Below are positions 27,305 through 50,796 of a stretch of 64,000 bases of DNA, one piece after another; position 1 is the stretch's first letter, and the number at the start of each line of letters is the position of its first letter. Below the pieces are notes generated by a model that saw nothing but the letters and a program-made list of their open reading frames with translations, ran no database searches and was not told the origin of the DNA. The stretch comes from Nitrososphaeria archaeon (GTDB lineage Archaea; Thermoproteota; Nitrososphaeria; JACIWG01): assembly GCA_963760525.1 (NCBI GenBank), contig CAVXDT010000005.1:23628-87627 (forward strand). The letters run 5' to 3'. Both the position numbers and the translations under genes were made by a program.

Positions 27305-27568
27305 TTGAGCATTTATCAAATGCGTATGGAAATTGATGCTAGGCTTCGAGATTACGTGTTAGACATCACTAAGATCGTCATCAGGGTATTAGTTCTAGCG
27401 ATTATTGGGATGGGCCTCATCTTAATTGGAATTTTGTTCCTTTGCATGGCGATGGTCAATTACATATCCATCTATCTTCCTTCATGGTTAGCCTGGTTGT
27501 GAGCTGGATTTATGATCTTCTTCGTCAATTTTGTTATTTCCATATTATCATTGGAAAGAAAAAGGTGA
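27305..27568 (+). pseudogene. small two-helix membrane protein with an in-frame TGA at 27500
   Basis: The first helix (VLVLAIIGMGLILIGILFLCMAMV) ends in YLPSWLAWL-TGA. The same frame then encodes AGFMIFFVNFVISILSLERKR-stop. Confidence 0.35.
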
Positions 27569-27825
27569 CCCGAGAAACATCTGTATCTTATCGGGATGAT
27601 CTTATTAGCGTTGGATTTTTTTATTATCTTTTAATATGCATAAAAAAGGGGAGTTTCAAGATTTCTATGGCTGCCCGCATGTTAAAGCGGATTCAAAATC
27701 AGGAAATGCACAAAAAAGATGTTCTAAACATAAAAAATAGGTGTAACCCATTTCGATGGAACAGATTCCAATGGAGAAAATGGGAAATTATGCAACGATT
27801 CGATTGACAGATTCCTTGATCATTC

Positions 27826-47851: not shown

Positions 47852-48001
47852 ATGTTAGGAAAACCAAATGAGATATTAGATGTGCATGAGAAGGGGTTTG
47901 TCTGCGAAGTATGTGGAAAGGTGTTTCAGAGTAGGGACGAATACAAGCAGCACAACTGCGAACAACACATAGAGGGCGGCTGTAGCATAAAATGGCACTA
48001 G
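47852..48001 (+). CDS. small C2H2 zinc-finger protein (49 aa, below the ORF-track cutoff)
   Basis: MLGKPNEILDVHEKGFVCEVCGKVFQSRDEYKQHNCEQHIEGGCSIKWH. The pattern is C-x2-C-x12-H-x5-H. Confidence 0.6.
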   Translation: MLGKPNEILDVHEKGFVCEVCGKVFQSRDEYKQHNCEQHIEGGCSIKWH

Positions 48002-48090
48002 AGAGATCTGGGCCTGTGCTGTGCTGAAATACTTTACGTCCAAGAGAAGCTTTATATAAGAAAAGTTAGTTGAAGTATGAGACAGAGAAA

Positions 48091-48657
48091 ATGAGCGAAA
48101 AACTAGCGAATCCAGCCCCACTCGGTCTCTTAGGATTTGGAATTACAACCGTGCTGCTTAACATGCATAACGCTGGCTTTTTTCCACTTGACAGCATGAT
48201 CCTCGCGATGGGCATAGCCTATGGAGGTCTTGCGCAGGTAATAGTTGGCATAATGGAATACAAGAACAAAAACACATTTGGTATGGTAGCATTTACTTCA
48301 TATGGCCTGTTCTGGTGGTCCCTTGTAATACTATTATTATTGCCAAATAATCTCGTTGGAGTGAACGCTGCAACAGCAGGTTCCATGGCTGCGTACTTCT
48401 TCATGTGGGGGCTGTTCACGTTTGCCATGTTCTTTGGAACCCTAAAAACAAATCGTGGACTACAGTTTGTTTTCATGAGCTTGACCATCCTCTTCTTCCT
48501 CCTGACTGTCAGAGAACTGACTGGAAACTCTGTCATAGCCCAAATCACAGGTTACGAAGGCATCATATGTGGGCTGAGCGCTGTATACGTGGCTTTGGCA
48601 GAAGTGTTGAATGAGGCTCAGGGAAAAACAGTACTACCCATAGGGAAAGTAAAATAA
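48091..48657 (+). CDS. satP: acetate uptake transporter, GPR1/FUN34/YaaH (SatP) family
   Basis: [18 protein letters not shown] signature and six TM helices. ATG at 48091. Confidence 0.9.
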
Positions 48658-49013
48658 GCAAGTTTTTTTGTTTAGTTCGATCAGAATAGCGTCCAATAAT
48701 GCATGAATTTCTTTCATATCAAAAAAATGTGAAATGCAGAAATGATGTCTTTGAGCCCCTTGCGGATCGATTGTACTGGGACATTTGTTGATGTCAAAGG
48801 TTTTAAATAGGGTACCCTAAACATCCGCTTTAAAGGCGGTCTTAAGCCTTGACCCACCACTCCTTCAATCATTATGGCATTTTTCTAATATTGTACGGTT
48901 CAAGTTTCTAGCTTTGTTTTTGTTGTTCTGCTTTTGTTGGCCGGTTGAAGGGTTGGCTGCTGAAGGTTCTGTTTTAGTTTTCGAAGCTTCCATCTCTTCT
49001 GCTTCTTTCGTAT

Positions 49014-49316
49014 CTATGACATTCGACGTGACCCCATTCGCTGAAAGCCTGGTACAAAACCTCCTTTTTCTTCAGGCCAATTATCGTGCCTGCTTGAAAA
49101 CTTCATAGGTTTGCCGCACACACTGCATGGAACCCTGAAGTTGTCCTCCTGTTCTCTGACCTGCTTTCTTCCCTGCTCCCTGAATGCTTCCGTCGCGTTT
49201 CTCACGCCTTCTGCTACTTCAATAATATATTGTTGGGTTAGATTCCTGATGAAGGTTGCGTACGATTTTTTTCCCTTAAGCGCATCCAAGGTACTCTTAA
49301 ATCTCGTGAGAGACAT
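49014..49316 (-). CDS. putative ribbon-helix-helix DNA-binding protein with C-terminal Cys/His motif (possible frameshift near 49075)
   Basis: The N-terminus MSLTRFKSTLDALKGKKSYATFIRNL fits a strand-helix-helix pattern. The alternative frame after an A-run gives CSVCGKPMKF...EVLYQAFSEWGHVECH, ending at 48974. Confidence 0.45.
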   Translation of the reverse strand: MSLTRFKSTLDALKGKKSYATFIRNLTQQYIIEVAEGVRNATEAFREQGRKQVREQEDNFRVPCSVCGKPMKFSSRHDNWPEEKGGFVPGFQRMGSRRMS

Positions 49317-49396
49317 ATAGAAATAGAGGTGTGGGTCTTCCTATACTTGTAATATGCTGGGGGATAGTGATATTTTCGCTTTGGCATAGTCAAAGG

Positions 49397-49526
49397 CATA
49401 TGTCACATCCATATATTAAAGGTATATGTTTGCTATATGTTAAAGCTATACACCAGAAATATGTTATTGTTATATGTTTGATATATGCTAATCCATATCT
49501 TAATCCATATGTTATTTGTATATGTT
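49397..49526. repeat. array of ten phased (T/C)ATATGTT-like boxes
   Basis: Boxes start at 49397, 49410, 49423, 49434, 49458, 49471, 49482, 49494, 49506 and 49519, with spacing of 11-13 bp and one 24-bp gap. Four are exact TATATGTT. An 18-mer TATATGTTAAAGC(T/C)ATAC occurs at 49434 and 49519. Confidence 0.9.
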
Positions 49527-49548
49527 AAAGCCATACCATTTTTTTGCT

Positions 49549-49720
49549 TTTTAGCGGGGTCATGTAATTGACGTTTTCCCTAGAGAAATGCCCCAGACTA
49601 CGCTCGACTTTTAGGCGTTGCAAACTCCTTTTTTTACAGTTTTAACGGTCGAAATTTGGATGCAAAACCCCTTTTTTAGCGGTCTAAATTTGCGTTTTTG
49701 GAGGGTGTTTTTAGACGATT
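49549..49720. repeat. second set of direct repeats, TTTTA(G/A)(G/C)CG-type
   Basis: Copies are TTTTAGCGGGGTC (49549), TTTTAGGCG (49609), TTTTAACGGTCGAAATTTGG (49640), TTTTAGCGGTCTAAATTTGC (49674) and TTTTAGACG (49709). The two 20-mers differ at 3 positions. Confidence 0.85.
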
Positions 49721-50044
49721 TTGGAACTTGGAAAAATAAGCGAAATCGATAGATCGCGCATGGGGAACATGTCGTCATCATCGTCATCAGAAGAGGAGAT
49801 GGGTTCCTTTAGGACAAGGATTTTTACTGCTCTTCGCGTCTGACTTTGGATGCACTGGGATAACGTCTGTAGACCAGAAACAAATGCCTCTCGACGTAGA
49901 ATAATCCAATCTGGTACACTTCGTTAGGGAGTCAATGTTGAGCGAGCCTCGCTTCAACAAAGACTTCTTTTCAACTTCACCCTAAGGGCGACGGTCTGAG
50001 ATTGTTTGCAAGCTTATATACTGTAATGGCTCACATGGATTGAG

Positions 50045-50796
50045 TTGAGTGATGGTTTGACGCGTTACAAACGCCTTATTGTATTCTCGGTCGCATTTTT
50101 TGTTGTTTTGGTGCTATCCTTGTCAGCTGTTCCTGTCTTCGCTGAATCAGTGCAAAGCCCATCCGCTGGAGTCTCACAAGCTGATGTGCAGGCGAGCAGC
50201 CTGGTGGGAAGATATCCGCCCAAGATCACTATAGGGGAGACGATAACGGACAATCATGATGGTACGTGGACTTACTCCTACGACATCTGCTCCAACGAGG
50301 AAACTGTGAACATTTGGTGGGTCCTCATATATACCAGATTTGACTATGCGTCGACGGCGGTGGGCTCCTTCACTGCATTCGGAGGTCACACGTCGTGGGG
50401 TTTCGAAATTAACGAGCCTATCAACGCGAATCCCGAACAGGATGCCAGAAACATTGATCCGACCTTAACCGCGTTCCAGGACACTTATGCCCAGGTTGGC
50501 CGGGACCGCCTGTACAGGAACCCATAATCCCTGGAGAGCGAACTTATGGCTTCTCTTTCACAGCGAACGCCTACGATCCTAATCCGAAGGTCTTCGCGTA
50601 TGAGGTTGAAGGCCAATATTTCCATTATGATAGTAAGTTCGCTGCTTGGGGTTGGACGACTGGACCATGTAGGCAGACTCCTCCTGTGGGCGGCGAACTA
50701 GTTGTCTCCTCGAAGTATGGTCTAGTGTTCTCTGCTGCGGCCTTGATTGTTCCAGCTGCTGCCATCTTCTACGTGGAAAAGAAGAAGAGAAAGTAA
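50045..50796 (+). CDS. secreted protein of the VGGEL-tail family, one frameshift near 50500 (best preserved member)
   Basis: The signal peptide ends AVPVFAES. The mature part continues in the -1 frame without stops. It reads PIIPGERTYGFSFTANAYDPNPKVFAYEVEGQYFHYDSKFAAWGWTTGPCRQTPPVGGELVVSSKYGLVFSAAALIVPAAAIFYVEKKKRK-stop. Confidence 0.65.

Follow-up and report, generated by a model that had tools for sequence, protein, structure and literature searches.

The window, the whole stretch of 64,000 nucleotides analyzed here from the genome of a Nitrososphaeria archaeon, contains a non-coding array of direct repeats immediately before the gene of a small protein. On balance, this array is probably the cognate operator, or binding platform, of that protein, which is predicted to regulate its own gene through it. 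As judged from its sequences, the protein belongs to an uncatalogued and mostly archaeal family in which a probable RHH domain at the N-terminus is combined with a long helix and a zinc knuckle of the form CxxC...HxxC. Across the family, gene and array go together, with boxes that are specific to each lineage. The action of RHH proteins on tandem repeats is a known principle (ParR/parC, omega, MetJ, CopG), here encountered in a family absent from the catalogues. The features of the locus are as follows.

49394–49528, plus strand: direct-repeat array of 11 contiguous units, consensus (A/T)GNYATATGYTA, spacing 11–13 bp, mean 12.2 bp
49410–49420, minus strand: TATA-like box TTTAATATATG, which is array unit 2 in gene orientation (sequence reading and conservation)
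48865–49387, minus strand: disrupted gene of a predicted RHH, long-helix, and CxxC...HxxC zinc-knuckle protein (comparison with intact homologues)
49536–49745, plus strand: lineage-specific non-coding spacer with a second repeat set and T runs
49549, 49609, 49640, 49674, and 49709, plus strand: TTTTA boxes TTTTAGCGG, TTTTAGGCG, TTTTAACGG, TTTTAGCGG, and TTTTAGACG, respectively
49330–49745, no strand assigned: block that occurs twice in the genome (second copy at G000:C12, about 27389–27760, on the opposite strand; locus L002, about 1490–1870)

Structure and distribution of the array

The repeat array is real. The ten octamer boxes listed in the original prediction were all recovered at their positions, as was an 18-mer said to be duplicated 85 bp apart. 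The reported spacing of 11–13 bp also held, but the single gap of 24 bp did not: a position-weight scan seeded with the boxes of the window located a degenerate box in register at 49446 (TATACACC). As this box fills the gap, the array consists of 11 contiguous units with successive spacings of 13, 13, 11, 13, 11, 13, 11, 12, 12, and 13 bp. A possible twelfth unit, again degenerate, is found at 49529–49541. The conserved unit is about 12 nt wide, (A/T)G-N-Y-ATAT-G-Y-T-A, and its consensus can also be written AGCYATATGTTA. Across 50 units from five loci, the ATAT core carries 1.5–2.0 bits per position compared to 0.3–0.4 bits at the spacer positions. Tandem Repeats Finder reports periods of 12–13 and 24 in the region. 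The boxes had been proposed to lie on one face of the DNA, which the mean spacing of 12.2 bp contradicts; at this spacing, successive boxes are rotated by roughly 60 degrees and spiral round the helix.

The array stands out within its genome. The assembly searched comprises 1.22 Mb in 15 contigs and is 68.5% complete, with the window corresponding to C5:23628–87627. The 64-kb window has 11 exact matches to YATATGTT, five of them in 49423–49526. When both strands of the assembly are searched, three or more copies of ATATGTT per 130 bp are found at only two places, namely the window array and the copy on contig C12. We also scored non-coding DNA by the number of successive 10–14-bp spacings of its best 7-mer, with one mismatch allowed. 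The window array, which is AT-rich (about 30% GC), scores 8, the highest of the 156 non-coding stretches in the genome that are 250 nt or longer.

The C12 copy is partial and 81% identical to the window block. It retains the first 22 or so codons of the gene, an array of seven units, and the spacer, whereas the rest of the gene has been lost. Its array shares 95% identity with the array of metagenome locus L018 and 79% with that of the window, while the window array is closest to that of L017 (89% identity). The genome therefore holds two diverged versions of the module rather than a recent internal duplicate. In two metagenome contigs, L018 and L019, synteny with the window extends to either side, and the gene, the array, the 200-nt spacer, a further stretch of about 280 nt, and a secreted-protein gene follow one another in the same order. 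L017 has the gene and a 10-unit array next to a different gene, without the 200-nt spacer; the array plus the gene thus constitutes the minimal unit. Conservation in close relatives, one of the checks proposed originally, is hence borne out at L017, L018, and L019 as well as in the C12 copy. Among these loci and the window, array length varies by whole units and the core is fixed.

Broader nucleotide searches added little. A DNA search of 40 related genomes with the 441-bp region returned the paralogue of the same genome only, and the exact 17-mer GAAATGCCCCAGACTAC had 12 matches in 596 Gb of genome contigs, all in unrelated bacteria and at or below chance level. A protein-pattern scan of metagenome contigs confirmed no relative. 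A palindrome, GGGTACCCTA, lies on opposite sides in the two copies, which raised the idea of a circularly permuted integrated element. It occurs at five loci, where it accompanies the 3' ends of other genes, and this rules the idea out.

The spacer to the right of the array is, on sequence comparison, a lineage-specific part that is separable from the array and gene. It shares 78–83% identity with its counterparts in L018, L019, and C12, whereas L017 and L021 lack it, and its conservation is not above that of the non-coding DNA lying further right in the same relatives. Indels of 1–2 nt between relatives indicate that it is not coding. The last three of its TTTTA boxes stand in tandem units of 34–35 bp. 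The two similar 20-mers noted earlier at 49640 and 49674, 34 bp apart, were confirmed. Three copies of TTTTARCGG occur in these 200 nt, compared to 20 in the whole genome with both strands counted (2.4 Mb). The spacer also contains six T runs of at least 5 nt on the plus strand, where there is a single A run. Among 23,254 stretches of 210 nt taken from the genome, just 9 reach five such runs or more, and L018, L019, and C12 preserve the asymmetry. Oligo-T tracts terminate archaeal transcription. Given this strand asymmetry, the spacer might, as a tentative proposal, stop rightward transcripts that leave the TATA-rich array. A scan for bacterial promoters and terminators remained at shuffle level, such bacterial models not being applicable to an archaeon. 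We also compared the spacer with that of the L027-type paralogues. Local alignment scores fell within the shuffled null, so homology was rejected, and the words TAATTGAC(G/A)TTT and ATGCCCCAG that are common to both spacers are coincidental.

The adjacent gene and its protein family

The gene of a putative RHH/Cys-His protein was originally placed at 49014–49316 on the minus strand, with the array abutting its 5' end. The adjacency stands and the coordinates do not. The interval is merely the middle frame of a frame-shifted gene at 48865–49387, the true start of which is the ATG at 49387 (MPKRKYHYPPAYYKYRKTHTSISICL...), and the array begins 7 nt upstream of this codon. A homology search with the 100-aa open reading frame of 49014–49316 retrieved three longer proteins (P0002–P0004; 149–159 aa, 56–74% identity) that begin with MPKR or MSKR and follow the pattern MPKR(V/K)Y(H)YPPAYYKYR..HTSIS. 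This N-terminus is encoded in the window from 49387 downward, in a frame that differs from that of the 100-aa open reading frame. In single-frame translation, accordingly, the N-terminus shares its frame with the EVLYQAFSEWGHVEC segment, while the middle part is read in a different one.

The frame of the gene breaks three times. Relative to the intact genes of L017–L019, the break near 49300 is a 1-nt deletion and that near 49065 a 1-nt insertion in an A/T run; the third break directly follows the HVEC codons near 49015. These shifts represent either decay or assembly errors, and the window copy of the gene and its locus are probably a relic. The next gene rightward (50045–50796) is likewise split over two frames.

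A profile search of 1.84 billion representative proteins recovered 206 representatives of the family at E ≤ 0.001, including 55 at E ≤ 1e-10, most of them 115–160 aa in length. In an alignment of 43 members, the N-terminal motif PP(S/A)..(R/K)Y...HP.(I/V)(S/T).R(L/V)T.E.K..LD is followed by SY......L, a variable helical linker, and then an invariant C-x2-C ... H-x2-C. Residues C88, C91, and C123 are invariant and H120 is kept in at least 90% of the aligned members. The whole protein is covered by no Pfam, NCBIfam, or PHROG model. Matches to RHH-clan models, though weak, recur among the 43 members, namely DUF6290 (8/43, best 2.8e-6), NikA-like (4/43, 4.9e-6), RHH_1 (4/43, 6.9e-5), and RHH_7 (3/43), and the family has weak matches also to Arc-like phrogs and to RelB, VapB, and ORF56 copy control models. 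For P0002, the best curated match is VAPB_antitox with an E value of 0.039, which is below the cut-off, and no curated RHH threshold was reached. One member carries the JGI name ‘predicted CopG family antitoxin’.

A confident AF2 monomer model (pLDDT 88) was obtained with the family alignment as input. It consists of a short helix, an unpaired segment (residues 19–27), a helix (28–38), a long helix (43–80), and a C-terminal part in which a beta-hairpin with two cysteines precedes two more helices. The unpaired segment is where the RHH strand (THTSISI in the window type) would pair in a dimer, and of the two helices behind it the second continues into the long helix. The monomer had no match in the PDB at E ≤ 0.001 by Foldseek, and a sequence-profile search of the PDB gave chance-level matches only. 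The RHH assignment of the family is therefore no more than probable. Members are sparse and patchy in distribution, being present in 5 of 151 genomes sampled in the class and in 6 of 401 in the phylum.

An operator model for the array

To compare loci across the family, homologous genes were fetched from related genomes and metagenome contigs and their upstream regions were read. A spacing score of at least 3 was found for 10 of about 15 lineages, a count that covers few independent lineages and was partly judged by eye, compared to 7 of 154 further non-coding stretches that are 250 nt or longer (4.5%) and 1 of 300 random windows from the genome of the window. The arrays read are listed below.

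L021 (same taxonomic family, other genus; 124 aa, clear orthologue): NNTATGYT, 12 units, 11–12 or 23–24 bp apart
L022: TATGGTAAA / (C/A)YATAGGGTAAA, 6 units, 11–13 bp
L027, L028, L029, L031: ATAGATATC-type, four copies in two genomes, several with in-frame stops
L033: TGGAYAY, 11 units
L035: GATAKGGTTTAC, 6 units, 12 bp, in an element with RepB_primase, AAA_25, and HTH_17 genes
L039: ...GGAAAAC, 4–5 units, 12–13 bp
L040: TCGATGA / GCGGTRA, about 25 units, 11–12 bp, over 250 bp
L042: AATAnnGGGG, about 5 units by eye, 11 bp
L043: AAAYRTTACY, 6 units, exactly 11 bp
L044: CTTACCAY, 12–13 bp

In these lineages, the array directly precedes the gene and the sequence of the box differs from one lineage to another, while the spacing of 11–13 bp is constant. 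Such a pattern would be expected from proteins that each read the array of their own gene. The units of L021 all lie on one strand, and the array is inverted relative to the gene when compared with the window. No clear array was seen in five lineages, in which the genes are mostly operonic or degraded (L037, L038, L041, L045–L047).

A box that is particular to the lineage, repeated every 12 bp or so directly before the gene, provides an unusually clear and computable signature. The family thereby offers ready-made protein-DNA specificity pairs from archaea that are almost all uncultured, and a natural test bed for the reading of DNA by RHH beta-strands. Its members are also candidate maintenance elements of archaeal plasmids or chromosomes, a class with very few known examples. 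The window locus is itself of lesser interest given its broken gene and probable relic status.

The array of the window contains a predicted promoter element. Unit 2, in gene orientation, is the TATA-like box TTTAATATATG, with its center about 29 nt upstream of the ATG at 49387. It departs from the other units in the same way at every locus, reading (T/A)TTAATATA(T/C)GG. The TTAATATA box is found about 29–34 nt from the ATG at six loci, namely the window, L017, L018, L019, C12, and L021 of the other genus, and a similar element, AAGCTTATATAC, precedes the start of the neighboring gene by about 30 nt. In archaea, the distance from the TATA box to the transcription start is usually about 25 nt. 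Transcription from unit 2 would therefore begin a few nucleotides before the ATG, a distance that fits a leaderless mRNA or one with a very short leader.

Since the TATA-like unit is conserved and well placed for the gene, the array is best read as a cooperative operator through which the RHH gene is autoregulated. A cooperative repressor operator was among the functions suggested at the outset, and it gains from three observations: the array lies 7 nt from the ATG, it holds a conserved TATA-like unit in register, and arrays with 11–13 bp spacing occur family-wide. Whereas the array, its conservation, the gene family, and the link between arrays and these genes across the family are observed, we infer binding, cooperativity, and repression by the RHH protein. 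One RHH/zinc-knuckle dimer would occupy each repeat of about 12 bp; the arrays found with the genes are the ground for proposing an obligate RHH-type dimer whose paired beta-strands would read the major groove of the repeated sub-sites. Dimers would then polymerize cooperatively along the array into a nucleoprotein filament, and a spacing that is not an exact helical repeat favors a spiral form. Such a filament would cover the TATA box of the gene in unit 2 and the transcription start in unit 1, resulting in self-repression. The zinc domain might mediate contacts between dimers or recruit a partner.

Some observations sit less easily with the operator model. Both arrays are well preserved, even though the window gene is broken and the C12 copy lacks the gene; this counts against the model. 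With the one gene frame-shifted and the other missing, both arrays may be binding sites left orphaned, provided that the frame shifts do not stem from the assembly. Moreover, the TATA box has eight or nine units upstream of it, far beyond the need of simple repression. So many upstream units, and the 25 or so of L040, suggest a filament of higher order that would do more than repress, and the L040 array looks more like a centromere or silencing platform.

The proposed operator has precedents among other RHH proteins. Omega of pSM19035 on its heptads and MetJ on met boxes are RHH dimers bound to short repeats in tandem, which overlap the promoter of their own gene. A likeness of the present family to the omega, MetJ, and CopG/ORF56 group is seen in one member that weakly matches the ORF56 copy-control model, while others match Arc-like, RelB, and VapB models. 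The family differs from this group in its longer unit (12 compared to 7–8 bp), its much longer arrays (7–25 units), and its additional long helix and zinc domain, and no toxin or Rep gene was noted downstream of the gene in the window. F55 of Sulfolobus spindle-shaped virus 1, compared here by description only, is likewise a small archaeal RHH regulator and reportedly binds 11-bp tandem repeats in promoters. It is a 6-kDa viral protein that lacks a zinc domain and has few sites per promoter.

Alternative readings

The closest known parallel is ParR/parC. In plasmid R1, parC consists of ten 11-bp direct repeats that flank the par promoter and are bound cooperatively by ParR, with about one dimer per iteron, and this binding serves both to repress the promoter and to form the partition complex (PMC2241845). 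The window array resembles R1 parC in having the same unit number and nearly the same spacing. Both systems place some ten direct repeats of about 11–12 bp in and around the promoter of a small RHH protein gene. By analogy, the array could be a centromere-like or maintenance site that the protein would coat to form a segrosome-like filament, with the zinc knuckle recruiting a motor or partner and autoregulation being secondary. We regard this as unlikely for the window. Consistent with it, some family members occur in mobile elements (L035, L038 with its serine recombinase genes, and L037 adjoining the 3' end of a tRNA), L040 has its 25 or so units over 250 bp, and one genome carries two divergent versions of the module. 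However, of the two features of ParMRC that were sought, the repeat array at a promoter is present (11 units with a TATA-like box in register) and the adjacent NTPase is absent: no gene for a ParM-, ParA-, or TubZ-type NTPase lies next to the window array, among the called genes of L033, L039, and L040, or among the open reading frames of L021. The neighbors in the window instead encode a SatP-type transporter, a zinc-ribbon membrane protein, a secreted protein, and a BtrH_N/DUF4872 protein. The window locus is also chromosomal, with synteny in L018 and L019, and the family is monocistronic at most loci seen. The protein has a zinc knuckle that ParR lacks, and no profile scan detected sequence similarity to ParR. 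The partition site suggested in the original prediction is thus unsupported here.

A related reading extends to the family as a whole. It posits an undescribed archaeal filament system in which lineage-specific arrays of 7 to about 25 repeats would be bound and the zinc knuckle would recruit a partner. Instead of a simple autorepressor, this would be a module for silencing, incompatibility, or a centromere-like function, able to pass from chromosomes to mobile elements and back. Its probability is similarly low.

It is a little less probable again that the array is drifting AT-rich tandem-repeat DNA, a functionless fossil kept through the close kinship of the relatives sampled. The gene is indeed broken in the window and lost from the C12 copy, the neighboring gene is also frame-broken, and the relatives that share the same box are all close (56–74% protein identity). 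Drift is nevertheless at odds with the information content of the ATAT core relative to its flanks in the 50 aligned units, with the retention of a TATGYT array by the orthologue from another genus (L021), and with the recurrence of unrelated boxes at the same spacing in distant family members.

There is little likelihood that the conserved block encodes a non-coding RNA or that the array acts as RNA within a long 5' leader. The identity of the 200-nt spacer across four copies, including the paralogous one, might have suggested this, and its strand-asymmetric T runs could be the ends of short rightward transcripts. Yet the conservation of the spacer does not exceed that of flanking non-coding DNA in the relatives examined, and no conserved TATA box facing rightward was found. 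Rfam 15 gave no match at the gathering score across the whole window and only a microRNA at a chance-level E value of 0.84 under the relaxed threshold. In RNAalifold of the four copies, the covariation terms were +1.6 and -0.6 kcal/mol, and compensatory pairs were almost lacking on both strands. The spacer of the L027-type paralogues was equally devoid of support from these analyses.

A replication origin at the array is the most unlikely of the readings. The ATATGTT boxes and the 34-bp TTTTARCGG units would then be iterons of a secondary chromosomal origin or of a relic origin left by a plasmid or virus that had integrated. As at archaeal oriC sites, the DNA is AT-rich, non-coding, and furnished with repeated elements, here of two direct-repeat classes; an ORB-core-like TTTCCAAG at 49728–49735 on the minus strand is conserved in four loci, and the relative in L035 lies 1.4 kb from a RepB primase gene, the only such case among distant relatives. 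However, the ORB elements of an archaeal oriC are inverted around an unwinding element beside cdc6, whereas the array is made of direct repeats beside an RHH gene. Neither copy has an initiator or Rep gene next to it, the arrays of different lineages travel with the RHH gene rather than with Rep genes, and L017 and L021 are devoid of the second repeat set. Cumulative GC skew, proposed earlier as a check, has an extremum at neither copy, although skew is weak in the whole genome and uninformative even near the cdc6-linked origin. The window was correctly said to contain no Orc1/Cdc6 gene: both cdc6 genes are on contig C14, with neither array copy nearby, and the origin offered in the original prediction is not supported. 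One of these cdc6 genes is flanked by repeats of the ORB type TTTCCA(C/T/G)TG and an AT-rich stretch (L015). This intergenic region, with its three repeats CCCCTTTATTTCCACTGGAC, CCCCTTTGTTTCCATTGCAC, and CTATTTCCAGTGCAA next to the AT-rich stretch, is likely to be oriC.

Surroundings of the RHH gene and its array

Four features flank the gene for the RHH/zinc-knuckle protein, the 11-unit array and the adjoining non-coding spacer in the window:
47852-48001, C2H2-type zinc-finger mini-ORF (49 aa)
48070-48657, GPR1/FUN34/YaaH (SatP-type) transporter gene
48808-48824, palindromic element AAATAGGGTACCCTAAA, just 3' of the RHH gene
50045-50796, gene for a secreted protein, on the right-hand side of the spacer

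The mini-ORF and the transporter gene separate the RHH gene from the gene for the zinc-ribbon membrane protein. As both are absent from the syntenic metagenome locus L019, they represent a local insertion or deletion. The palindrome, followed by a CCGCTTTAAAGGCGG hairpin, is kept at the three loci with intact relatives of the RHH gene (L017, L018, L019). In the genome, GGGTACCCTA occurs at five loci, on contigs C5, C11, C12 and C13 (twice), apparently where genes have their 3' ends. Several loci may thus share a small repeat or an element resembling a terminator.

The secreted-protein gene is read in two frames, split near 50527-50560, with its C-terminal VGGEL, transmembrane segment and KKKRK tail in a different frame. 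As the RHH gene has three breaks of its own, at least four frame breaks fall within 1.9 kb, caused either by decay of the genes in this area or by indels in the assembly.

Family members in other contexts

A multi-copy module is present at four loci of genomes G004 and G006 (L027, L028, L029, L031). It consists, in order, of a divergent HTH-like gene (product MIRSSKFKVNLERNERLYSYWRLGNTVKETALITGIPESSVGYYFAKF...), a conserved spacer of ~250 nt containing the palindrome ATCTTATAGGATTACCATAAGAT, an array of the ATAGATATC type, and a paralogue of the RHH/zinc-knuckle gene. In-frame stops are present in several of the copies. The module resembles a repeated cassette that may be mobile.

One protein of the genome has the family's C-terminal zinc-knuckle domain but none of its other parts:
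G000:C14:92884-93081 (L030, ORF 1306-1707), 133-aa protein with zinc-knuckle domain CSVCSRLVYYNSTDEDWETKVKPELIKAFGNWIHGEC
Since this domain is joined here to an unrelated N-terminus, the family's zinc domain also exists as a separate module.

Further repeat arrays and a probable origin

An exceptionally long array precedes another family member, P0156: at L040 490-760, ~25 boxes spaced 11-12 bp apart extend over ~250 bp, reading TCGATGA first and GCGGTRA or GACGGTA thereafter. Outside the window, the spacing statistic (successive 10-14-bp spacings of the best 7-mer, one mismatch allowed) reached 4 in the non-coding region G000:C5:19890-20506 (ATTTTGA at 13, 12, 11 and 11 bp) and 3 in G000:C3:198127-198960, also non-coding (TTGACGG at 12, 13 and 12 bp). 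These two regions may be additional phased arrays of other regulators.

A different type of repeat adjoins a cdc6 gene on contig C14:
G000:C14, L015 2900-3100, three intergenic ORB-type repeats (TTTCCACTGGAC, TTTCCATTGCAC, TTTCCAGTGCAA)
The same intergenic region contains an AT-rich stretch, and it is the probable chromosomal replication origin.
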